Origin: Patescibacteria group bacterium | GTDB lineage: Bacteria > Patescibacteriota > Minisyncoccia > Phycocordibacterales > SBAW01 | Direction of reading: 5' to 3' | DNA: 64,000 nt | NCBI GenBank assembly: GCA_016176685.1 | Contig: JACOWS010000001.1 | Span: forward strand, 78,113-142,112 | Shown: in pieces, positions 1-22,944 of the stretch | How the letters are laid out: each line of letters begins with the position of its first letter | Position numbering within the stretch: position 1 is the first letter of the stretch | Program-made: the position numbers and the translations under genes | The notes under the pieces: generated by a model | What the model saw: only the letters and a program-made list of their open reading frames with translations | Told to the model about the DNA's origin: nothing | Databases searched by the model: none

Positions 1-265
1 CGCCTCGCTTCGCTCGGCGACTAATTCGTATTCAACTTTGGGGGTAAAAACGAATTCACGGTTTCGCATTTTGGGGGAAGAAAATTTTTTAATCCAATAC
101 TGAAACTCAGAAAAGGCCCTAAAATAGGGGTTTTTTCTGTTTGACTTGACTTCCAAGCCCGTATATGCTATGCTGTTTGTGTCATCGGAATTCCAAAAAC
201 CCGCTGATCTCTGCCGTATGAGTGCGGCTGAGAACAGCACATTCCCAAAGGAAGGAGTAACGACC

Positions 266-421
266 ATGAACAAGAAGGGTTTCGTTCTTTTCGGCAAGGC
301 CGTGGCGCTCGTTTGCTCGATGGCTGGCCTCGTATTCACAATTACGGGGCAGTACCACGAGTCCTCGATCGCATGGAACGGTGCGGCGATAGCTCTCTGG
401 GCCGTTTCGTTCGCCGCATAG
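266..421 (+). CDS. small two-TM membrane protein (hypothetical)
   Basis: ATG at 266 preceded by GGAAGGAG RBS; translation MNKKGFVLFGKAVALVCSMAGLVFTITG... has two hydrophobic helices. Confidence 0.3.
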   Translation: MNKKGFVLFGKAVALVCSMAGLVFTITGQYHESSIAWNGAAIALWAVSFAA

Positions 422-869
422 CCTGCGCTTCGCCTCGACCTCATCGCCGCGCTATTCTCCGGAGTAGCGCGGCTTTCTATTTTTATTGAAAAATTATTTG
501 ATTTCATATAAGATTCGGCTGGTATTCGCTTCGAGAATTTTTGGATTGAATGCCGCCAAAGAAAAACTTGAAATTGTCAGCGGTGCGGCTCCCCGCCTGC
601 GCCGAGGCTTCGGCGGGCAGGCGCCGCCTTTCCGAATTTTCGCGGGCCTTCGCCTCGCCGAAGCGGCTTCGGCCACGCAGGCGGGGGATTTTTTCGGAAA
701 AATGCGTTCGGACTAATTCAAGAATACTGCACCAGTTTGCCAGGGTGGCACATTTTCCAGTCTTAACCAGTCTCGCCCGCATTGTCGGTTTGAGCGGGCT
801 CAAGCGAGCTTGCGCATGTACCACATTGTGATACAATCTGGGCATATTGGATAACCACACGAGTCTATG

Positions 870-1610: not shown

Positions 1611-2021
1611 ATGGAACAAGAATCACGAATATATAAATTTTTTATGACCTTGCCTTTTTGGTGGATACTGTTAACAGCTATCTATGTTGGTCTAACATTT
1701 TCAGGCTGGTTGTATGCGGCAGCATTACTGGGTCTGTTCGTTCCTATCGGGGTGTGGGATATGCTATTCTTTAGATTCGCAATTTCAGGATACCCCGTCG
1801 GAGGAATTGGCCTATGGGACTTTGCCATTGGTTTTGTGTTAGTCTTGCTGACTATTTTTGGTGGGGAATGGCTTATTCGTAAGATCAAATTATCTCCTGC
1901 CATGAAAATTTTTGTTATTCTTGGCATACTTTTTGCGCTAACTATTGTGGTTGATTTTGTTCTCTGGGGGAACTGGCAGACGCTAGAACTTCTTAAAGTA
2001 GGTGGCGAGATAACGATATAA
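1611..2021 (+). CDS. hypothetical polytopic membrane protein
   Basis: low-GC ORF, 4 predicted TM helices, Trp-rich; first gene of the low-GC island. Confidence 0.45.
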   Translation: MEQESRIYKFFMTLPFWWILLTAIYVGLTFSGWLYAAALLGLFVPIGVWDMLFFRFAISGYPVGGIGLWDFAIGFVLVLLTIFGGEWLIRKIKLSPAMKIFVILGILFALTIVVDFVLWGNWQTLELLKVGGEITI

Positions 2022-2035
2022 TTATGCTAAATCTG

Positions 2036-2500
2036 CTATGTTTTGTTCAAATTCTCGTAATAGTTTCTTAGAGCTTCCTCTTGTATTTTATGTAAATGTA
2101 TACTCGGCCTTTTAGATGCAATTAAATCAATTGCTTCCTTTGGTTTATACCCTCTTTGTATCAAATAAGCCGATACCAATGTGGGCGCACGCCCATGACC
2201 GTTTTTGCAATGTACATAGATCTTTCTATTTTGAGATACGAGTTTTTGTATTGACTCCGCGCCGAAAGAAAGTTGGTCTTGAGTGGGAGCCATTTGATCA
2301 ACCACTGGAATCCAAACATATATATCGACGCCAAATGGAACATCGAGACGGTTTTCTTCGAGTGATATATCGGCAGTTATGTTTTCTTTCTTCAACACGT
2401 CGGCAAGACCCATGACACAACACTGATTGGTGCCGATATAGATGCCATCGGTAATGTAACTATATTCCAGTATCGGCGTTTTCGGGTGAGTATGATCCAT
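2036..2500 (-). CDS. dual-specificity / protein-tyrosine phosphatase
   Basis: VHCKNGHGRAPT = HCxxGxxR(S/T) catalytic P-loop of the Cys-based phosphatase family. Confidence 0.7.
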   Translation of the reverse strand: MDHTHPKTPILEYSYITDGIYIGTNQCCVMGLADVLKKENITADISLEENRLDVPFGVDIYVWIPVVDQMAPTQDQLSFGAESIQKLVSQNRKIYVHCKNGHGRAPTLVSAYLIQRGYKPKEAIDLIASKRPSIHLHKIQEEALRNYYENLNKT

Positions 2501-2528
2501 ACTAATATTCGATTAAACCGTTTAAATC

Positions 2529-3953
2529 TTACCCAAAAAGCCGAAATAACATGCGCAAAAGTTTTTTTGAACGCGGGTTTAATGCACGCCCTTGGTATGT
2601 TTGAGCGGCCCGCTTATTGATTCTTGCGGCGGTCGGGTACGGATAAATCTTAGCAAATAAATCGGCAAGAGACAGGTGGTGTGTCTGCGCCAATATAAGT
2701 TCCTGTATAAGTTCACCGGCATGTGGAGCAATCATCGTCCCGCCCAATATGTTCCCTTTCTTTGAAACATAAATATTTAACAGGCCATCGCGATAATCGT
2801 CTGTGATGGCGCGATCATCATGAGAGAAATGTTCTGTAACTGTTTCGTACTGGACACCGCGCTCTTTAAGCTCCTCGGTGGAAATGCCGAATGTTGCAAT
2901 TTCCGGGTCGGTGAATGTAACCCAAGACAGGTTGTCGTTAACGAGCTTCTGTTTAAACGGGGAAAACCAATTATGGATGATGGTACTGGCATGAAGTTCG
3001 GCTGCGTGCGTAAATTGATATTGTCCGGCGACATCACCGCACACGACAATATTTTTATTGGTTGTGCGCAGGTACTGGTCGACTTTCAGTTTCTGCCCGC
3101 TTTCCTCAAGTTCGATATGAGCCTTTCCCAGATCAAGGCCTTCAATAGCAAGCTGCCTGCCAATACCTACAAATAATGAGTCCACCGGAAGCGACAGTTC
3201 ACGCCCCAAAACTTCCACGACGAGCTCTCTGCCCTCTCGTATATTTTTTGCCCGAGCATGGAAAAGGATATTCATTCCTTCGCCCACCAGTCGCTTATAC
3301 AAAATATCGGTAATATCTTTATCCTCTTTTGGAAGAAATTTTTCTCCTTGTTCAAGAATGGTAACCTGTGAACCCAGGCGTTGAAACGCTTGTCCGAGCT
3401 CTATACCGATAGGGCCCCCGCCTATGACGACAAGATTTTTAGGAAGAAAATCTATGTTGAAGATATTTTCATTGTTAAAGACCCGCGTATGCTCTATTCC
3501 CGGCAATGATATAGCGCGTGGTCGCGACCCCGTTGCCAACACAATACGCTTGCCTTCATACGCCACGCCTCCGACCATAACCTTATTTTGACTAATAAAT
3601 TTAGCTTCCCCCAGAACGACCGACATACCGCTTTTCCGAAACCAATCGGCATTTTCATGCTCGCGGATGATATCCTGCCTACTTTTCACATACGCCATAA
3701 CCGCCCGCATGTCCACCGTACCGGTATGGGTAATCCCAAATTTTTTAATGGTATGTCCCGCATGTACCGCGCGAGCGACATGAATAAGCGCTTTGCTTGG
3801 TACACAACCAAAATTCAAACAATCGCCGCCGATGCTCTTATCACTTTTATCAATGAGCAGGGTTGACAATCCTATGCGGTTTGCAAAAGCGGCGATATTC
3901 AACCCTCCGGAACCGGCGCCGATGACCATAACATCAAATATTTTATTTTTCAT
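2529..3953 (-). CDS. FAD-dependent pyridine nucleotide-disulfide oxidoreductase (Lpd/MerA-like, no C-terminal Cys pair)
   Basis: N-terminal VMVIGAGSGG FAD fold; redox-active GGDCLNFGCVPSK disulfide; second NAD(P) Rossmann VVIGGGPIGIELG. Confidence 0.8.
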   Translation of the reverse strand: MKNKIFDVMVIGAGSGGLNIAAFANRIGLSTLLIDKSDKSIGGDCLNFGCVPSKALIHVARAVHAGHTIKKFGITHTGTVDMRAVMAYVKSRQDIIREHENADWFRKSGMSVVLGEAKFISQNKVMVGGVAYEGKRIVLATGSRPRAISLPGIEHTRVFNNENIFNIDFLPKNLVVIGGGPIGIELGQAFQRLGSQVTILEQGEKFLPKEDKDITDILYKRLVGEGMNILFHARAKNIREGRELVVEVLGRELSLPVDSLFVGIGRQLAIEGLDLGKAHIELEESGQKLKVDQYLRTTNKNIVVCGDVAGQYQFTHAAELHASTIIHNWFSPFKQKLVNDNLSWVTFTDPEIATFGISTEELKERGVQYETVTEHFSHDDRAITDDYRDGLLNIYVSKKGNILGGTMIAPHAGELIQELILAQTHHLSLADLFAKIYPYPTAARINKRAAQTYQGRALNPRSKKLLRMLFRLFG

Positions 3954-3957
3954 GTTT

Positions 3958-4620
3958 TTACCTTGATGCTATCCTCGTACTTACATACCAGCTTATAAAA
4001 ATTACGGCTGCGGCAAGAAAAACCAGCGGTTGCAACCACACAGGCAGTGTTCCCGCGTACGCAAATACAAAGGCAAATGGCGTGACCCCGATTACCGTAG
4101 CAAAAAAATATGAACGACTCCCTATATTAGAAAAAAGGCCAATGGCATATGACAATATATCAACCGGTATGAGCATCCTAAGAAAAACAATCGTCCAAAA
4201 CATGTTTTGTGTTGAGAATCGTTCCTCAAATCTGTTTAGCTTATCAATGGAAACAAGTTTTTCCACCAGTGGTTTGCCAAAATATCGCGCAATATGAAGA
4301 GCTATTTGAGCGCCGATTGACCAGCCGATAATAGAAAGTATGGCGGCCGCAACCCACCCCCATAGACCAGCGGCCACGGGGATAAGCGGGATGGTTGAAA
4401 TTGGCGCGACCACTACCGCAAGTATGGTGATAAAAACATAGGCTGCCATGCCAAATGCCCCGCCGCGTTCCGCAAGCATGTTTATTTCACTCGCATATAT
4501 TGTTGCCATAAATGATAAAAAAACAAAAAGGGCGAGCACGAGCGCCAGGCTAAATACTGATGCAACGGCATTTTTATTAAAAATATGATTGGCGCTTTTC
4601 TCCATATATTTATTCAACAA
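3958..4620 (-). CDS. DedA/TVP38-TMEM64 family membrane protein
   Basis: polytopic membrane protein with the DedA-like core FLRMLIPVDILSYAIG. Confidence 0.5.
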   Translation of the reverse strand: MLNKYMEKSANHIFNKNAVASVFSLALVLALFVFLSFMATIYASEINMLAERGGAFGMAAYVFITILAVVVAPISTIPLIPVAAGLWGWVAAAILSIIGWSIGAQIALHIARYFGKPLVEKLVSIDKLNRFEERFSTQNMFWTIVFLRMLIPVDILSYAIGLFSNIGSRSYFFATVIGVTPFAFVFAYAGTLPVWLQPLVFLAAAVIFISWYVSTRIASR

Positions 4621-5545
4621 TCACATCTATTTTGCTTCCAAAAACTTTTGAAGCTTTTTCCGTATAGAGCGCTATATTATCTTTAAAATACGGCGGGTGC
4701 TGTTTTTGAATTTGTGCGACAATATAATAACCAATGGCCATCATAGCGGCGTACCCGGCATCTTTTGGAAGCGGTATAGAAAGTCTCCTATCTGGCTCGC
4801 CCCACATAGTATTTTCCTCGCCAAAGCTCACAAAAAGCTCGTTCGAAGGCACTACGGTTACCGCATGTTTCATATATTCGCTGGTTTCCACATCGCGAGC
4901 AATCTTTCTTCCGAAAAGCTCAATGAACTTTACTTCAAGCATTCGTACAATACCTGAAAACCTTGGAGGAACGATGAAAAAATAGGAATCATACTGCGAA
5001 AAGTCTGGGAAGATAATGGTGTCTATCTGTTCTTTAATAAATTCCTGTATTTTCTCCGGGTCTTCGTTCGTTTTCCCTAAAATCATTCCCAAATAGGTAG
5101 AGGTATTATAGGTATACGGCTCGCGATTTTTTGGAAATATAAATATATCGCCAGACTCGACAAATTCTTTTACGGGCGCATCAGAATTGTTGGTAATGAG
5201 AGTAACTTTCTTGCCGAGCTCTTTCGCCCGCTTTGCTATAATCGGCGCGTGTTTCCCGCCGGACGCGGAGATAAGAATTACACCGTCAATATCGGGGATG
5301 TACTTTAGTTTACTTTCAAAATTACTCTCTGAAGCGAAGACTGCGTCTGTGTCTTCAAAAATAATTCTCCCGGTTGCTTCAGCATTACCAGACCCGACCA
5401 CGAGCGGGCGTTTATACTTTAAAATATCTAATTTCGGCAATGCTTGTTTTTGAAAAAGTTCAAGTGCGCCCAAGACCGCCACATCCAAGTCGGGAATGGT
5501 GTTTAAAGTAAATGTATTAAGAATATCAATGTTTTTATGATTCAT
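4610..5545 (-). CDS. SIS-domain-like protein, possibly phosphoglucose/phosphomannose isomerase type (uncertain)
   Basis: two Gly/Ser-rich nucleotide/sugar-phosphate binding-like segments (PLVVGSGNAEATGRI, GVILISASGGKHAPII); co-directional and immediately downstream of zwf-gnd. Confidence 0.3.
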   Translation of the reverse strand: MNHKNIDILNTFTLNTIPDLDVAVLGALELFQKQALPKLDILKYKRPLVVGSGNAEATGRIIFEDTDAVFASESNFESKLKYIPDIDGVILISASGGKHAPIIAKRAKELGKKVTLITNNSDAPVKEFVESGDIFIFPKNREPYTYNTSTYLGMILGKTNEDPEKIQEFIKEQIDTIIFPDFSQYDSYFFIVPPRFSGIVRMLEVKFIELFGRKIARDVETSEYMKHAVTVVPSNELFVSFGEENTMWGEPDRRLSIPLPKDAGYAAMMAIGYYIVAQIQKQHPPYFKDNIALYTEKASKVFGSKIDVIVE

Positions 5546-14473: not shown

Positions 14474-14545
14474 TCCTCTCGGCAGGAATCGAACCTGCAT
14501 CGCCTCCTTCGGAGGGAGGTATCTTATCCATTAGACTACGAGAGG
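14474..14545 (-). tRNA. tRNA-Arg (anticodon CCG)
   Basis: reverse complement folds as CCTCTCG/CGAGAGG acceptor, D-arm GTCT..AGAT, anticodon stem CCTCC/GGAGG with loop CTCCGAA, T-arm GCAGG-TTCGATT-CCTGC; CCA not encoded. Confidence 0.85.
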
Positions 14546-17282: not shown

Positions 17283-17783
17283 ATGATTTTAATTCTCCAC
17301 AACATACGTAGTGTCCATAATGTTGGTTCTATATTCCGCACGGCGGATGCCGCCCTCGGCCGTAGCCATACGGGCGAGGCGGGAGCTTCTAAAATAATTT
17401 TGAGCGGCTACACGCCGGGACCCACCGACCGCTTTGGCTACCCAAGAAAAGACTTCACAAAAGTGTCGCTTGGCGCGGAAAATATGGTGGCTTGGGAACA
17501 AACAAAAACGCTTGGCGCGGCAATAAAAAAACTTAAAAAAGAAAACTGCTACGTGGTTGCTGTCGAGCAGGACAAAAGCGCCACTTCCCTCTTTACCTAC
17601 AAGCCGCCTAAAAATAAAAAACTTGCGCTTGTTTTAGGCAACGAGGTCCGCGGCCTTTCCAAAAGTGCGCTTAACCTGTGCGACGCAATTGTAGAAATCC
17701 CCATGCGCGGCAGCAAGGAGTCTTTAAATGTTTCCGTCGCCGCCGGTGTGGCGATGTTTGCACTGATACATTTGACAACTTAG
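17283..17783 (+). CDS. SpoU/TrmH-family (SPOUT) RNA 2'-O-methyltransferase
   Basis: LVLGNEVRGLS ... SLNVSVAAGVAMFAL trefoil-knot SAM-binding motifs. Confidence 0.8.
   Translation: MILILHNIRSVHNVGSIFRTADAALGRSHTGEAGASKIILSGYTPGPTDRFGYPRKDFTKVSLGAENMVAWEQTKTLGAAIKKLKKENCYVVAVEQDKSATSLFTYKPPKNKKLALVLGNEVRGLSKSALNLCDAIVEIPMRGSKESLNVSVAAGVAMFALIHLTT
17721..17765 (+). repeat. direct repeat copy 1 (15 codons SLNVSVAAGVAMFAL, 3' end of trmH-like gene)
   Basis: 45 nt repeated at 18423-18467 with only synonymous differences (tta/ctc, aat/aac, gtt/gtc). Confidence 0.8.
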
Positions 17784-17799
17784 CATATTACTGTACAAT
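17772..17799 (+). promoter_or_regulatory. sigma-70-like promoter (TTGACA-16-TACAAT)
   Basis: TTGACA 17772-17777 and TACAAT 17794-17799, 16-nt spacer, about 40 nt upstream of ATG 17840 with GGAGGGGG RBS. Confidence 0.4.
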
Positions 17800-17839
17800 A
17801 CTTCATTGGTTGAACATGAACAAACCCTTGGAGGGGGCC

Positions 17840-18371
17840 ATGACCAAGCAGCCGACGAAAGACATCCGAGTGGAGGTAAGTGTGCGTAATAATCTCCTTC
17901 TCACCGCGATGGAGGAGAGGGGGATCAAAAGTGTAAAAGAGCTATGGCGACAGCTTGGGGTGCCTGCTTCATACAGTCAGCTCGCCCTGCTCGCCGCGAT
18001 GAAGATCGCGGCTCGTAAAAACAACGGCGATTGGCTGGGCATAGCCCATAGGCTGGCAGATTTTTTCCGATGCTTGCCTGAGGACCTCTTTAGTGAACCT
18101 CAGCAATATGAGGCACTGAAAAAGAACCGCGCGAGAGCGCGTCATTCGTTTGCGCTTTGGATTTGAAACCGGGGAAGGAAAAACCCTGCAAGAAATCGGG
18201 GAAAAGATGGGGTTGTCCCCTTCCCGCGTAGCCCAAATAGAGCACGAAGCTCTGCGAAAGCTTAAAGGTGGTGCCGGGTACAGAAACCTTTTAATGGCGG
18301 GACTGAAGGAAGTTCGCCGCTCCGGATACCGAACCCTTAGGCCAGATGATGAGGTGCTCAAAGCCCTCTAA
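17840..18371 (+). pseudogene. frameshifted gene for a small protein with C-terminal sigma-70 region-4 HTH
   Basis: frame 1 (17840-18166) ends ...RARHSFALWI*; overlapping frame 2 (from 18150) reads RFGFETGEGKTLQEIGEKMGLSPSRVAQIEHEALRKLK, the canonical LRFG...TL.EIG....S.ERVRQIE.KALRKL region 4.2; a 1-nt frameshift near 18150-18166 separates them. Confidence 0.5.
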
Positions 18372-18389
18372 GAGTCGGTAAGATTCGAA

Positions 18390-18424
18390 ACTCGCTACCA
18401 ACAAATGGTAGCGAGTCTTTTTTC
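18390..18424 (+). terminator. rho-independent terminator
   Basis: ACTCGCTACCA-ACAA-ATGGTAGCGAGT hairpin followed by CTTTTTTCTCTC. Confidence 0.55.
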
Positions 18425-18467
18425 TCTCAACGTCTCCGTCGCCGCCGGTGTGGCGATGTTTGCACTA
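18423..18467 (+). repeat. direct repeat copy 2 (encodes the same 15 aa then LN-stop)
   Basis: see copy 1; lies just after the cassette terminator and 95 nt before tRNA-Lys. Confidence 0.8.
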
Positions 18468-18561
18468 CTAAACTAACATTAGCCCTCTCCAGTACAGAAA
18501 AGAAGGAGGTTGAAGCGTGGGGTGGCGACTCGAACCTGTGTCTGGTATAATATTACGGTAA

Positions 18562-18634
18562 CCGCCCGTAGCTCAGTTGGTAGAGCAGGAACCTTTTAAG
18601 TTCAAGGTCGCAGGTTCGATCCCTGCCGGGCGGA
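18562..18634 (+). tRNA. tRNA-Lys (anticodon TTT)
   Basis: CCGCCCG/CGGGCGG acceptor, GCTC-AGTTGGTA-GAGC D-arm, anticodon loop CTTTTAA, GCAGG-TTCGATC-CCTGC T-arm; close to E. coli tRNA-Lys body. Confidence 0.85.
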
Positions 18635-18635
18635 C

Positions 18636-19469
18636 ATGGAAAGTTTTAAGCATAGATGCGTTGTGCTACGGAAACAAGATTACTCTCTCTTGGAAATAGC
18701 TAGGATAACCGGTAGGCCGAAGTCATCAGTGTATTTCCATATCCGCAACATACCGCTCAGCCCTAGGAAATATCAAAAAATACACGCACTCAATATACAA
18801 CACCTTCTTCGGGTTGCCCGATCTAGAAAAGGAAAGAGTATAAGGGAGTTTAAAAAAATCTACCGATGGAACCCGGAGAATGTATCGCTAGTTGCCCACC
18901 TTCTTTTCGATGGCGAAATAAAACGAAGTGGTTGTGTATACAATAACCGCAACAAAATATTGTTAAAAAAGGTCGAGGTGAGTATGAAGAAGATGTATCG
19001 TTTTTCTCCAACACGCTATTACAACCCAAACACCGGTGTCTCACGAATAAGTTATTTTAACGTGGCACTAGGAAATTACATGGAGCAAAAAGCAAAAGAA
19101 CTGTGGCAGTGTCTTGGGGAATTACCTCTTGAGACTAAAAGGTCTTTTCTTCGGGCCTTTTTCGACGATGAGGGGTGCATCGATTTTAGACCAAAAACAA
19201 ATTCTAGAAGGATACGCGGCTACCAAAAAGATATCGCAATACTGGAACACGTTTCGCAAGCGTTGCGTAATTTTGGCATTACATCAAGAATCCAAAAACC
19301 AAATGAGGTGGTTATTACCGGCCGCAATAATTTGATCATGTTTCAAAAAGAGATAGGGTTTACCGCTGGAGTGTATATCAACGGGAACCGATCAAATAGT
19401 ATCTGGAAAAAACATCTAGAGAAGCGAGAAATCCTCGCCAGAGCAATTCACTCATATATTAAAGTGTGA
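18636..19469 (+). CDS. LAGLIDADG-family homing endonuclease (double-motif, free-standing)
   Basis: two LAGLIDADG-type motifs LVAHLLFDGEI and LRAFFDDEGCI about 100 aa apart; N-terminal HTH-like LLEIARITGRPKSSVYFHI; GC about 38% versus about 60% in flanks; starts 2 nt after tRNA-Lys. Confidence 0.75.
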   Translation: MESFKHRCVVLRKQDYSLLEIARITGRPKSSVYFHIRNIPLSPRKYQKIHALNIQHLLRVARSRKGKSIREFKKIYRWNPENVSLVAHLLFDGEIKRSGCVYNNRNKILLKKVEVSMKKMYRFSPTRYYNPNTGVSRISYFNVALGNYMEQKAKELWQCLGELPLETKRSFLRAFFDDEGCIDFRPKTNSRRIRGYQKDIAILEHVSQALRNFGITSRIQKPNEVVITGRNNLIMFQKEIGFTAGVYINGNRSNSIWKKHLEKREILARAIHSYIKV

Positions 19470-20040
19470 GTGCGAAACGCTCCAAAAGGAGTTCTAGGTC
19501 GCCCAAGCCGCGGTGGGAGTCGTGGTACATCCACACAATCTGCCGCGAGAGTGCCGCATCTTTCATGGCCCTGGCCTTCCAGGCCAACAAACCGGCAAGG
19601 GCCTCGGGCTTCTCCCCCGCGCGCAGTGCCGCCGTGAGCCCCAACCATAGTTTTTTCTTGTCGCGCGCGCCCAATGCCGCGGCAAGTCCAAACCGGTCAA
19701 ATGTGAACTCTTCTTTTTTTGGCTTCTCAATTTTTTCTATTGTTGCCCCTGCTTTGGCAAGCGCGTCGGTTTCTTTTTTTAAAAGTTTTTCTTCTTCAAA
19801 GATAAAGGTGTGGGGCGAGCCAGCAAGCTCTTTTGCCATGTCTATAAACTCCTCCCTGCGCGCACCGGCAAGCGCCCCCACCAGCACAAAAATGCGCGCG
19901 CCGCCAAACAAAGCTTGTGTTGTTGCAAGTGCCACTACTTCCTCTAACGAAATTACTTCCCACTTTATTTCTTCGCTTCCCTTGGGTCGCCTTTTTTGTC
20001 CAACAATTACGGTAATCATAACGGTTTCATTTCTCCCCAA
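19459..20040 (-). CDS. hypothetical protein, possibly short DNA polymerase III delta (HolA)-like
   Basis: weak resemblance to HolA domains I-II (FGGARIFVLVGA...; ...TFIFEEEKL...AKAGATIEKIEKP); immediately upstream and co-directional with polA; overlaps the 3' end of the homing-endonuclease gene by 11 nt. Confidence 0.35.
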   Translation of the reverse strand: MGRNETVMITVIVGQKRRPKGSEEIKWEVISLEEVVALATTQALFGGARIFVLVGALAGARREEFIDMAKELAGSPHTFIFEEEKLLKKETDALAKAGATIEKIEKPKKEEFTFDRFGLAAALGARDKKKLWLGLTAALRAGEKPEALAGLLAWKARAMKDAALSRQIVWMYHDSHRGLGDLELLLERFALTL

Positions 20041-22457
20041 TTTTTTCCCGCCTTACCTTCGGCGATAAACGGTATCCCCTGGCGCTCCTTTTCACTCATC
20101 ACCTGCTCCATAATATGTTTTATTTTGGGGGCAAGCGCCGCAACCCGCTCCTCCTCTATCTCAAAAACCAACTCGTCGTGTACCTGCAAAAGCAGGTGCG
20201 CCTTGTCGCCATGATTTTCTTTTGTAAATAGTTCGTCCACTTGTATCATCGCGAGCTTCACCAGGTCGGCTTGGGTCCCCTGCATCGGGGCGTTGACCGC
20301 CATGCGCTCGGCCGCCGCGCGCACGTAGGGTATAGGCGAGTGTATGCCCTCAAAGTACCGCCGCCGGCCAAAGTAGGTTTGCGTGTAGCCCTCGCGAGCC
20401 GCCTGTCCTTTTACCTCATCCACATACCGCGCCAAGCGCGGAAAAACTTCGAAGTACTTGTTGTAAAACTCCTGCGCCTCGGCCCGCGAGGTGCCGAGCG
20501 ACTCTTTTAAGGCGTTCACCCCCATGCCGTAGAGAATGCCGAAGTTGATAACCTTGGCGCGGCGACGCTGCTCATACGTTACCTCCTCTGGTTTTATTTT
20601 AAATACGCGCGCCGCCACCTCGGCATGCGCATCCCGACCGCTCTTAAAAATCCCCATGAGCCATGGGTCTTTGGAGAGCAGAGCCGCAATGCGCAACTCT
20701 ATCTGGCTATAATCAAAAGCAACCAGTGCATACCCCTCTGCGGCGACAAACGCGCGGCGTATCGCGCGCCCAAGCTCTGTCTTGATAGGAATGTTCTGCA
20801 GGTTGGGGTTTTGCGAGGCAAGCCGGCCTGTTGAAGTGCCGGTCTGCACAAAAGTGGTGTGCAGGCGGTCTTTTTTGTCGAGCAACATTGGTATTGCGTC
20901 GATGTAGGTGGAAAGGAGTTTGGACAACTCGCGGTATAGAAGTACGTCGGCAATCACCGGGTGCACACCCTGCAGTTTTACCAGCTCGGACTCGCGGGTG
21001 GAACGCGCGCCGCCGGCCGTCTTCTTCTGGTTTTTTGCCGAGAGCCCGAGCTTATCAAACAGCACCTCGCCCAACTGTTTGGGCGAGGAAATGTTAAACT
21101 CGCCGCCCGCCGCCCGGTAAATGCGCCCGGCTATTTTATCGAGCTCGCCGTGGTATTCTGTGGAAAGTTTTTTCAAAAAAGCTCGGTCTATAGAGATGCC
21201 GCGTCGCTCCATCTTGCGCAAAATCGGTATGAGCGGGCGCTCTATCTTCTCGTACACGAAGGTCAGCCCTCTTTTTTCTATCTCCACGAGTATATTTTTT
21301 TTTGCCTCGGCAAAGTCGTGGCTCTTCCCTGCGCGGTAGAGGTCGTCAAGGGTCGGCTCGGTAACGGATGAGTCGAGCAACCACACGGCAACCGCCAGTT
21401 GCTGAAACTCTTCGTCGTCTATAGACGGGGTGCCGGCGGGGCTGCTAGGGTTTTCCGCCAAAACTCCCACTGAAAAAGTCCTCGGTGTCCTCGCGTTGCT
21501 CAAAGCAACGCTTGCGCCAGACTTTTCCAATGGGAGTTTTGGCTCTAAAAGCTCCCGCACGCGCGGTATGAGCGAGCGAAATTCAAGCTCCGACAAAAGG
21601 TCAAGTAAGGGCGTGGGGTTGGCGCTCTCGCGCCAGGTCTTAGCAGGCAGAGTAAAATCTATAGGAACGTCGCGATGTATGGTGGCCAGCTCTTTTGAAA
21701 GCTCGGCCTCTTCCCTCCCCTCTTTTATCTTTTCAAATGTGGCGCCCTTCACCCCGGCCGCCGCAAGCCAATCCGGATGTTTTTCAACCGCATCGTAAAT
21801 TTTTTCAAGCCCCCCGAACTGCGACACCAACGATGTTGCCGTTTTCTCGCCGATGCCTTTAATACCCGGGATATTGTCGGATGGGTCGCCGCGCAACCCT
21901 TTGTAGTCCGGCAACAGTTCAGGACCGAAGCCAAACCGCTCCCTCACCCCCGCCTCGTCGTAAAGCACCGTTTCCGAAAGACCTTTCTTAAGCGTGTAGA
22001 CCCGCACCCGGTCGTCATCCACCAGCTGGAGCGTGTCCATGTCGCCGGACGCGATGATAATGTCAACATTATTCTGATGTTTGAGTTTTTTCACCACAGT
22101 ACCCAACACATCGTCTGCCTCAAAACCCTGCTTCTCGTACCGCGGGATGCCAAAGGCGTCCAAAACATCGCGCGAGCGCTTAATCTGCGCAATTAAATCA
22201 TCCTCGGCCTTGGGGCGGGTCGCTTTGTACTCTTTAAACGCGGCGTGGCGGTAGGTGGGGCCCGGCAGGTCAAACGCCGCGGCAAGGTAGTCTGGCTTCA
22301 GCTCGGCAATAATACGCACCAACATAGAGATGAGCCCGTACAATGCGCCGGTTGGTTCGCCTTTAGAGGAAGAAAAGTCCGGCAGTGCGTGGTACGCACG
22401 GTGCAGTATCGCGTGGGTGTCTAGCAACACTAACCGCTTTCTTTTTTTGGTATCCAT
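20016..22457 (-). CDS. polA: DNA polymerase I (5'-3' exonuclease plus polymerase domains)
   Basis: N-terminal 5' nuclease motifs (LVLLDTHAILHRAYHAL, FDLPGPTYRH), polymerase motifs RRRAKVINFGILYGMG and LLQVHDELVFE; start taken at MDTKKRK. Confidence 0.9.
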   Translation of the reverse strand: MDTKKRKRLVLLDTHAILHRAYHALPDFSSSKGEPTGALYGLISMLVRIIAELKPDYLAAAFDLPGPTYRHAAFKEYKATRPKAEDDLIAQIKRSRDVLDAFGIPRYEKQGFEADDVLGTVVKKLKHQNNVDIIIASGDMDTLQLVDDDRVRVYTLKKGLSETVLYDEAGVRERFGFGPELLPDYKGLRGDPSDNIPGIKGIGEKTATSLVSQFGGLEKIYDAVEKHPDWLAAAGVKGATFEKIKEGREEAELSKELATIHRDVPIDFTLPAKTWRESANPTPLLDLLSELEFRSLIPRVRELLEPKLPLEKSGASVALSNARTPRTFSVGVLAENPSSPAGTPSIDDEEFQQLAVAVWLLDSSVTEPTLDDLYRAGKSHDFAEAKKNILVEIEKRGLTFVYEKIERPLIPILRKMERRGISIDRAFLKKLSTEYHGELDKIAGRIYRAAGGEFNISSPKQLGEVLFDKLGLSAKNQKKTAGGARSTRESELVKLQGVHPVIADVLLYRELSKLLSTYIDAIPMLLDKKDRLHTTFVQTGTSTGRLASQNPNLQNIPIKTELGRAIRRAFVAAEGYALVAFDYSQIELRIAALLSKDPWLMGIFKSGRDAHAEVAARVFKIKPEEVTYEQRRRAKVINFGILYGMGVNALKESLGTSRAEAQEFYNKYFEVFPRLARYVDEVKGQAAREGYTQTYFGRRRYFEGIHSPIPYVRAAAERMAVNAPMQGTQADLVKLAMIQVDELFTKENHGDKAHLLLQVHDELVFEIEEERVAALAPKIKHIMEQVMSEKERQGIPFIAEGKAGKNWGEMKPL
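21467..21551. repeat. 85-bp nested palindromic element (family B), inside polA coding sequence
   Basis: outer inverted repeat CCAAAACTCCCACTG/CAATGGGAGTTTTGG flanking core AAAAAGTCCTCGGTGTCCTCGCGTTGC-TCAAA-GCAACGCTTGCGCCAGACTTTT; same core at 58648-58732. Confidence 0.75.
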
Positions 22458-22464
22458 AGATTCT

Positions 22465-22499
22465 GGGACTTCGTAAGTCCTCGGGGACTTACGAAGTCC
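22465..22499. repeat. perfect 15-bp-arm palindrome spanning tsaE stop and polA 5' leader
   Basis: GGACTTCGTAAGTCC-TCGG-GGACTTACGAAGTCC; right arm encodes tsaE C-terminal RTS-stop, left arm lies 8 nt upstream of polA ATG. Confidence 0.65.
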
Positions 22500-22944
22500 T
22501 AATATCAATATACCGCTCTTTCTCCCCTGCATTTTCGGACGAGAATTGTAGCGTCATATCGGGTACGGGGAGTGCACCCCCGACCCGCTCCGGCCACTCG
22601 ATGCACACCAGGTTGTGCGGGTCTTCTAAAAACCGCTCGGGCCGCAGAGCCGCAAACTCCTTAGCGCCCTCCAAACGGTAGGCATCTATGTGTATGAGGC
22701 GCGCAAAGCGCGGATGGTGCGGTATGTGGTAGCTCTTCATCAATACATAGGTAGGGCTTTGTATAGTGTCTGCTATACCAAGCTCTTTTGCGAGTGCCTG
22801 CACAAACGTGGTCTTCCCGGCTCCCAAGTCGCCCAGCAAGGCAATTATGGTCGCTTTGTTGCCTTGCAAATCCTTGGCGAAGTTTGGACCAGCCAACAGT
22901 CTGTGTACAAAATCTCCGAGCCTCTTCAGCAGCACTTTTTCCAT
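22489..22944 (-). CDS. tsaE: tRNA threonylcarbamoyladenosine biosynthesis protein TsaE
   Basis: ALLGDLGAGKTTFVQALAK Walker A and IQSPTYVLMKSY segment typical of YjeE/TsaE. Confidence 0.8.
   Translation of the reverse strand: MEKVLLKRLGDFVHRLLAGPNFAKDLQGNKATIIALLGDLGAGKTTFVQALAKELGIADTIQSPTYVLMKSYHIPHHPRFARLIHIDAYRLEGAKEFAALRPERFLEDPHNLVCIEWPERVGGALPVPDMTLQFSSENAGEKERYIDIRTS

Follow-up and report, generated by a model that had tools for sequence, protein, structure and literature searches.

A free-standing LAGLIDADG endonuclease gene family in fixed register with tRNA-Lys(UUU) in Patescibacteria

A 64-kb stretch of Patescibacteria DNA (contig JACOWS010000001.1; hereafter the window, whose positions serve as coordinates) raises the question of how a gene for a LAGLIDADG-type endonuclease came to lie directly behind an intact tRNA gene, and what it does there. 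To our knowledge, bacterial homing endonucleases are known almost solely from introns, inteins and phages. The open reading frame (ORF) considered here begins one nucleotide (nt) after a tRNA-Lys(UUU) gene, and a preliminary description of the window took it for a free-standing selfish endonuclease gene in a tRNA-proximal hotspot. We compared the locus with fetched loci from other genomes and metagenomes (labelled L001 and so on, with their own coordinates) and analyzed the protein, the tRNA alleles and the wider family. From these comparisons, it is likely that the gene belongs to a subfamily of active, free-standing homing endonucleases specialised on the tRNA-Lys(UUU) of Patescibacteria (Paceibacteria-type lineages). 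The main uncertainty is whether it is an actively homing element, as we think probable, or has a domesticated or intron-linked role.

An endonuclease gene one base behind an intact tRNA

The tRNA-Lys(UUU) gene (18562-18634, plus strand) is 73 nt long and intron-less, does not encode CCA, and is found by both ARAGORN and the Rfam tRNA model (68.3 bits). A single base, C18635 on the plus strand (tRNA position 74), separates its discriminator A18634 from the ATG of the endonuclease ORF (18636-19469, plus strand; 277 amino acids, aa). At its other end the ORF overlaps by 11 nt (19459-19469) a conserved gene on the opposite, convergent strand, ORF193 (19459-20040, minus strand; 193 aa). The preliminary description had the uninterrupted 73-nt tRNA and the 11-nt overlap right, and needs correction in three figures: the gap to the tRNA, given as 2 nt, is one base; the GC content of the ORF, given as about 38%, is 40.5%; and its deficit, given as about 20 points, is 12-14 points relative to the 2-kb flanks (52.4% and 54.7%). 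The NCBI annotation of the protein (P0001, 259 aa) starts at an internal TTG, 18 codons late, and so leaves out 18636-18689. Because homologues are conserved from residue 1 in the family alignment, the ATG at 18636 is the true start and the NCBI start is too late. The late start apparently avoids touching the tRNA, and other records are likely to carry the same error.

The register with the tRNA is a property of the family. At least 759 homologues were found (clusters at 90% identity), nearly all 275-286 aa long and 53-70% identical to the window protein, and all those with a named source come from Patescibacteria. A GTDB scan with one genome per species returned 74 loci, 70 of them with upstream DNA, and a tRNA-Lys(UUU) gene ends at the ORF start in 69 of these 70. 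Of 77 occupied loci, 63 have a spacer of 1 nt, 76 one of 0-5 nt, and 61 the junction A-C-ATG; the same C after the discriminator is also present in empty sites. The neighbourhood of Mur ligase, SpoU methylase, ORF193 and polA genes is syntenic, and the unit of tRNA and endonuclease gene is found in it in both orientations. The association with a tRNA that was proposed at the outset stands, and the word hotspot understates it, given that the entire subfamily is fixed at the tRNA-Lys(UUU) 3' end with a near-invariant 1-nt spacer. Searches of published work on Patescibacteria LAGLIDADG genes, tRNA-Lys, free-standing endonucleases, and leaderless mRNA or RNase Z returned no description of the family, which is apparently undescribed. 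IMG/VR viral contigs held no relatives, and a phage vector was rejected on that ground.

By fold and catalytic acids, the protein is an I-DmoI-like two-domain LAGLIDADG endonuclease, for which DNA cleavage is predicted from sequence and structural model. Both motifs read earlier from the translation are present, LLFDGEI at residues 89-95 and FFDDEGCI at residues 175-182, placing D92 in LAGLIDADG domain 1 and E179 in domain 2. The pairs D92-G93 and E179-G180 end the two LAGLIDADG helices and are invariant in 121 of 121 sequences, and also in relatives at 25-38% identity; with both catalytic acids present and invariant, the protein is not a degenerate remnant. A search with hidden Markov models gives a significant match to Pfam LAGLIDADG_3 (PF14528) at residues 167-241 (43 bits against a cut-off of 22.5, E=5.6e-11). 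The N-terminal helix-turn-helix (HTH)-like segment, residues 1-65, had likewise been noted before and has weak Pfam HTH matches at residues 7-45, of which Sigma70_r4_2 is the best (E=1.6e-4). An AlphaFold2 model from 22 homologues (mean predicted local distance difference test score, pLDDT, 90.9) consists of an N-terminal helical module and two alpha/beta LAGLIDADG domains, with the helix and strand order of two alpha-beta-beta-alpha-beta-beta-alpha domains that pack through their LAGLIDADG helices. A sequence search of solved structures returned noise only (E>0.05), and a fold search was needed instead: the best solved structures in Foldseek, all at probability 1.00, are I-DmoI, the TliVMA intein endonuclease, I-Tsp061I, I-SceI and the LAGLIDADG domain of WhiA. 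The match to I-DmoI, whose catalytic residues are D21 and E117, has a template modelling (TM) score of about 0.62 (target-normalised) at a sequence identity of about 17%. A chance ORF is ruled out by the uniform length (about 276 aa) of the at least 759 homologues and by a ratio of nonsynonymous to synonymous substitution rates (dN/dS) of 0.05-0.10 in close pairs.

The gene is also free-standing, as first described. The Rfam model Intron_gpI matched nothing in 17500-20500 at E<=1, and nothing at gathering score in the window as a whole, where the only finds were two tRNAs; the same search does detect group I introns in L061, L072 and L155-L157. No intein or Hint family was found in Pfam at E<=1. 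An intein-associated endonuclease was rejected on the lack of a Hint domain and on the ORF having its own start, right after the tRNA, and its own stop. A group I intron-encoded endonuclease was rejected on the lack of an intron core and on the uninterrupted tRNA, and a LAGLIDADG maturase on the lack of an intron at the locus or in the 64-kb window; a maturase role may apply to L155-L158.

The corresponding empty site is found in the closest relatives. Comparison loci were fetched from metagenomes by the presence of ORF193, which makes the sample unselected for the endonuclease, and the closest of them, L075-L077 (polA 90-93% and ORF193 83-89% identical), are without the endonuclease gene. L075, the closest relative with the tRNA in the window's orientation, gives the exact empty site, with nothing between tRNA and ORF193: the tRNA end and spacer ...GGGCGGA-C are followed directly by TAGAGTTTTAGGG in L075, and in the window by the gene from its ATG onwards and then by TTAAAGTGTGA. 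A TAG, the complement of the ORF193 stop codon, comes directly after tRNA and C in L075, and the ORF193 stop codon abuts the tRNA 3' end in empty sites generally. The DNA that the window has in addition to L075 spans 18636-19458 (plus strand; 823 bp). Nucleotide homology between the window and L075-L077 extends from polA to 19456-19460 and then stops, and 18477-19458 has no counterpart in L076 except the tRNA. Since homology resumes at the empty-site junction, the endonuclease gene takes its stop and the three codons before it from the pre-existing ORF193 3' end, read on the opposite strand. The insertion is clean, with no tRNA 3' duplication in the window (the best nhmmer match is insignificant, E=8.5) and no integrase, other cargo or flanking direct repeats there. 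A search for a second endonuclease copy elsewhere in the window found none.

Occupancy, host relationships and tRNA alleles

About 73 metagenomic loci have tRNA-Lys beside ORF193, and the gene is present at 8-9 of them (about 11%), the closest relatives being empty. Where it is present, its relationships do not mirror those of its hosts. L142 and L115 are 90% identical in polA and 88% in ORF193, but only 64% in their endonucleases, and their tRNA alleles differ; the L142 endonuclease is 85% identical to that of L098/L099, though ORF193 is 76% identical there. The comparison of L142 with L115 is mosaic along the unit, the tRNA and the first approximately 490 nt of the gene being 45-65% identical and the last third 82-98%. 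The breakpoint lies near nt 490 of the gene. Single disabling lesions were found in 2 of about 70 copies, an in-frame stop in L056 and a frameshift in L068. The selfish, mobile character proposed in the preliminary description is borne out by the patchy occupancy, the disagreement between gene and host and the mosaic copies.

The tRNA alleles follow a related pattern. The common empty-site allele is very uniform, with an A7:T66 pair, the anticodon arm GGCTCC-CTTTTAA-GGAGA and the T-loop TTCGAAT. Alleles at occupied sites are diverse, with G:C or C:G at 7:66, changed T-stems and T-loops and often other anticodon stems; that of the window has G7:C66, the T-loop TTCGATC and the anticodon stem GGAAC/GTTCA. 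At all levels of host relatedness, tRNA identity is approximately 78% between occupied and empty sites and 89% between empty sites, and the window tRNA is 82% identical to that of L075-L077, where flanking coding DNA is 83-88% identical. Variant-class alleles occur at 5 of 5 independent occupied sites of the unbiased sample and at 12 of 63 empty ones (Fisher p=6e-4, uncorrected for shared ancestry), and changes in the T-arm and at 7:66 are common to every occupied allele of that sample. Just before the tRNA, the 26 nt at 18528-18553, including the putative promoter element TGGTATAAT, are 96% identical to those of occupied L001, a host with 60% polA identity. Judged by these comparisons, tRNA allele and promoter-proximal sequence go with the lineage of the endonuclease and not with the host, and the tRNA allele appears to move together with the endonuclease gene. 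An occupied-type allele is also found at some empty sites (L103, L107 and L147/148), as is expected of what gene loss would leave.

Pieces of displaced tRNA-Lys genes were found directly after the endonuclease stop in L007 (3572-3596 and 3744-3763), L026 (3836-3853) and L041 (3829-3853). These 3' remnants contain T-loop and T-stem, acceptor strand, A and C, begin at about position 50-57, and differ in sequence from the functional tRNA 3' end. They are the product expected if a break in the resident tRNA were repaired from a donor cassette homologous on one side.

Several further rearrangements were seen around the tRNA. The remnants in L007 are two identical 20-nt copies around a 167-nt segment. 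Inverted T-arm and acceptor remnants lie about 70-150 nt upstream of the tRNA, on the minus strand, in L017, L019, L020, L023, L027, L040, L043 and L068; they span model positions 48-74 (28-74 in L043) and abut a conserved promoter-like box, TGTGGTATTATA, whose -35 element they may supply. Very close relatives can differ in the orientation of the tRNA-Lys gene, which is inverted together with a few adjoining bases, and this holds for empty sites as well (L075 versus L076/L077, L103 versus L142, and L147/148 versus L115); empty sites with an occupied-type allele have the orientation opposite to that of their occupied counterparts. An insert of about 80 nt lies between promoter and tRNA in L075 (reverse complement, 100-167), L020 (2830-2916) and L023 (about 1395-1474). 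At its start the opening 9 nt of the tRNA are repeated in direct orientation (CCGCCCATA or GCGCCCGTA), and its end reads ...CCTCACT(A/T)C; it has the appearance of a small mobile element, non-coding, that inserted at tRNA position 9/10 and duplicated 9 bp of its target. In L142 a gene for a 276-aa membrane protein (4568-5518) separates ORF193 from the endonuclease gene; the 3' end of ORF193 is repeated next to it as a 65-nt duplicate, which makes this another insertion with a duplicated gene end at the locus.

A proposed homing route and its rivals

We propose that the enzyme would cut tRNA-Lys genes that lack the endonuclease gene, inside the tRNA or at its 3' boundary, and that the break would be repaired from an occupied donor. 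Repair would bring in the endonuclease gene with part or all of the donor tRNA and promoter, akin to 'intronless homing'. The occupied allele would be protected by structure-preserving tRNA substitutions (T-arm, 7:66 pair and anticodon stem), by disruption of the junction through the insertion, or by both. One candidate target is a site across the tRNA 3' end, split by the insertion. Another candidate is the T-arm and acceptor region, to which the remnants starting at about position 50-57 and the shared T-arm and 7:66 changes would point, and which L004, L010 and L025 contradict as a universal target.

Expression would be tied to the same tRNA. An extended -10-like element, TGGTATAAT (18543-18551, plus strand), stands 10 nt before the tRNA 5' end and is, as read from the sequence, the presumed promoter of a tRNA-Lys/endonuclease transcript; a consensus promoter scan does not list it because it has no good -35. 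There is no terminator between tRNA and ORF, and no room for a promoter or ribosome-binding site before the ORF, so that the ORF would be co-transcribed with the tRNA from the TGGTATAAT promoter. A terminator-like hairpin with a T-run (18390-18426, plus strand; an 11-bp stem, then CTTTTTTCTC) ends the upstream unit, and the tRNA/endonuclease pair would therefore have its own transcription start. Neither tRNA gene of the window (14474-14545, minus strand, and 18562-18634, plus strand) encodes CCA, and 3' processing would therefore be endonucleolytic, or exonucleolytic with CCA addition; the tRNA-Lys genes of relatives mostly encode just C74 past the discriminator. Maturation of the tRNA 3' end by an RNase Z-type cut at or next to position 73/74 would free an mRNA that starts at the AUG or one nucleotide before it, (C)AUG, and whose translation would be leaderless. 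A start defined by processing in this way is in keeping with the near-invariant 1-nt spacer.

The family extends beyond the window subfamily, and its members lie in different layouts. A profile search of 1.84 billion representatives gave 87 clusters (50% identity) at E<1e-30 and 717 at E<1e-3. All four mid-distance members, L155-L158 (32-34% identical), adjoin a tRNA-Lys(UUU) gene whose anticodon loop is interrupted, between CTT and TTAA, by an ORF-less group I intron (L155, about 1620-1939, minus strand; L156, 1157-1477, plus strand; L157, about 156-454, minus strand; L158, 1154-1426, minus strand). The endonuclease gene lies 16 nt past tRNA-CCA in L156 and is divergent in the other three (L155, L157 and L158), at a distance of 50-75 nt from the 5' end of the tRNA. 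L061 carries both an intron-containing tRNA-Lys-like gene (about 152-480, minus strand) and an intron-less tRNA with its endonuclease unit; ARAGORN misses the intron-containing genes of L155-L158 and L061. In L072, from Omnitrophota (1822-3056), a duplicated tRNA 5' half (anticodon loop TTGTTTA) is followed by a 38%-identical endonuclease gene and by the same 5' half with a group I intron (92.5 bits). The layouts thus comprise a gene that diverges from an intron-containing tRNA beside it, one that lies downstream of such a tRNA, and one that starts 1 nt behind a tRNA with no intron. Since the 32-34% relatives adjoin tRNA-Lys(UUU) too, the link to this tRNA is older than the window subfamily. 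A survey of tRNA introns in Patescibacteria does not mention tRNA-Lys (PMC13011429). The more distant members L159-L163 lie in other contexts; in L162 (2345-2458) and L163 (1008-1121) a 5S rRNA gene stands within about 10 nt after a 27%-identical member, on a contig with an RNA_pol_N gene, and several tRNA genes follow, which suggests that the wider family has other structural-RNA associations.

The most complete form of the proposal is that of an HTH-LAGLIDADG family dedicated to tRNA-Lys(UUU), which would substitute for the resident allele a cassette made up of a promoter, a resistant tRNA and the endonuclease gene, would be translated from a leaderless mRNA released by maturation of that same tRNA, and would document in its layouts how endonucleases and group I introns associate and dissociate. 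Taken as a whole, we put this forward tentatively, as plausible and somewhat short of probable. A number of observations weigh against the homing account or against parts of it. T-arm and acceptor are of the common sequence in the occupied loci L004, L010 and L025, as is the anticodon arm in the L001/L098/L142 lineage, so no single tRNA segment explains immunity in all lineages. T-arm substitutions were accordingly rejected as a general immunity rule, and the anticodon loop is disfavoured as the target of the window subfamily. A classical 22-bp site placed symmetrically about the insertion point would be poorly conserved in its right half, where the sequence varies from one locus class to another. 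The inverted upstream remnants could be decayed older, divergent tRNA genes rather than products of breaks. The GC content of the endonuclease gene tracks host GC and its deficit is a family trait, which makes the low GC a weaker argument for recent transfer; dN/dS is as low as in a housekeeping gene, and the two together fit long residence and even a host-beneficial role. Leaderless expression, finally, is purely inferred.

On a rival reading, the protein would be a domesticated, WhiA-like LAGLIDADG/HTH DNA-binding protein, inherited vertically, tied to tRNA-Lys in its host function (for example, in regulation of the tRNA operon) and lost in many lineages. Very strong purifying selection (dN/dS 0.05-0.10), uniform length with many invariant residues, a GC content that tracks that of the host and damage in only 2 of about 70 copies are all in keeping with domestication, as are the N-terminal HTH and the presence of the WhiA LAGLIDADG domain among the structural matches. 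However, both catalytic acids are invariant, unlike in WhiA-type proteins, the closest relatives have a clean empty site, and approximately 89% of orthologous loci manage without the gene. Vertical inheritance also conflicts with the gene-host disagreement, the mosaic copies and the covariation of tRNA allele and endonuclease lineage. We consider domestication unlikely, and membership among WhiA-like regulators was rejected on the retained acids and the patchy distribution.

Another rival reading gives the protein a different partner, namely a group I intron in tRNA-Lys(UUU) that it would help to splice, or whose insertion site in the anticodon loop it would cut ('collaborative homing'); the window copy would then be a relic left after intron loss. 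This is what one might read from the four of four loci (L155-L158) beside a tRNA-Lys(UUU) with an ORF-less intron, from the intron-containing gene and intron-less unit together in L061, and from the relative in L072 that adjoins another intron-containing tRNA. Against it, the window has no intron, nor do at least 75 subfamily members that are nevertheless intact under strong selection; the subfamily's insertion point is the tRNA 3' end and not the anticodon loop; and the L001/L098/L142 lineage coexists with an unchanged anticodon arm. An intron-linked role of the window copy is, on this evidence, quite improbable. The 3' ends of tRNA genes are also classic integration sites, and partial tRNA 3' copies lie beside some loci, as they might if the ORF were cargo left from a larger tRNA-targeting integrative element or island. 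Yet the extra DNA relative to the empty site is the ORF alone, 823 bp, the window has no integrase, cargo or flanking direct repeats, and the displaced tRNA pieces differ from the functional tRNA end and are therefore not att-type duplications, which leaves an island remnant very improbable indeed. An active, free-standing homing endonuclease specialised on tRNA-Lys(UUU) thus remains the likely account of the gene.

Neighbouring features, known systems and meaning

Beyond ORF193 lies polA (20016-22532, minus strand). A Pfam search of ORF193 itself gave no match, and the name 'holA-like', a working label only, was dropped on that account. On the other side of the tRNA, the 3' end of the SpoU methylase gene (17715-17760) is duplicated at 18423-18476, and an insert of about 660 bp separates the copies (region 17761-18476). 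Within the insert, a 73-aa ORF matches Sigma70_r4 (18150-18371, E=3e-12) and overlaps a 162-aa ORF that matches HTH_26 weakly; the terminator lies there too. L076 and L077 have a similar SpoU-end duplicate beside the tRNA, with a different insert of 2.9 kb. These duplicates and inserts look like a second insertion hotspot or element next to the tRNA.

Several known systems share features with the one described here. With enzymes of the I-DmoI type, the window protein has in common the single-chain two-domain fold and the catalytic pair of Asp in motif 1 and Glu in motif 2; I-DmoI, however, is encoded in an archaeal 23S rRNA intron, whereas the window protein is free-standing behind a tRNA and has an additional N-terminal HTH of about 65 aa. 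In its working mode, the system is by analogy closest to the free-standing Seg and Mob endonucleases of phage T4 (SegB, SegF, SegG and MobE), whose genes lie between other genes without intron or intein and which spread through repair of breaks, with co-conversion of markers nearby. SegB sits within the tRNA gene cluster, with tRNA genes on both sides, and the target listed for it is the intergenic tRNA region of related phages (PMC2988022). The T4 proteins differ in being GIY-YIG or HNH phage enzymes with loosely coupled insertion and cleavage sites; here, LAGLIDADG enzymes in cellular genomes keep a fixed 1-nt register with one tRNA. Within the same phylum and superfamily, LAGLIDADG enzymes of rRNA insertions in the Candidate Phyla Radiation (CPR)/Patescibacteria also target conserved structural-RNA genes (PMC11270868). 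Those enzymes, however, lie inside 16S and 23S rRNA insertions, mostly group I introns, and are mostly single-domain; LAGLIDADG_3 is reported only within 16S insertions, and tRNA is not mentioned (PMC11270868). For the putative leaderless message, the nearest likeness is the tRNA punctuation of mitochondria, in which RNase P and RNase Z yield leaderless mRNAs (for the processing step, see PMC5716156): there, too, an mRNA abuts a tRNA, and processing would set its 5' end at or near the AUG. Mitochondrial punctuation is organellar and genome-wide, whereas here it would concern a single bacterial gene. The layout of L155-L158, an ORF-less intron in tRNA-Lys(UUU) with an endonuclease gene just outside, is that of collaborative homing, from which the window subfamily differs in being intron-free. 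Collaborative homing is known from cyanophage psbA, where a free-standing endonuclease gene stands beside an ORF-less group I intron.

The family described here is a large, free-standing one in cellular genomes, held in a fixed register at one essential tRNA gene. Its comparison also flags a recurrent annotation error, in which starts are called late where the true start abuts a tRNA. If the proposed mechanism is true, the family would offer many compact LAGLIDADG enzymes, natural specificity variants against one kind of target, that would be useful for meganuclease engineering, and its layouts would provide natural intermediates for the 'collaborative homing' union of endonucleases and group I introns. 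It would also be a case in which the 5' end of a bacterial mRNA is set by tRNA processing. For the Patescibacteria themselves, it would mean that a selfish element reshapes the sequence of a tRNA gene, the turnover of its alleles and perhaps its orientation in highly reduced genomes.

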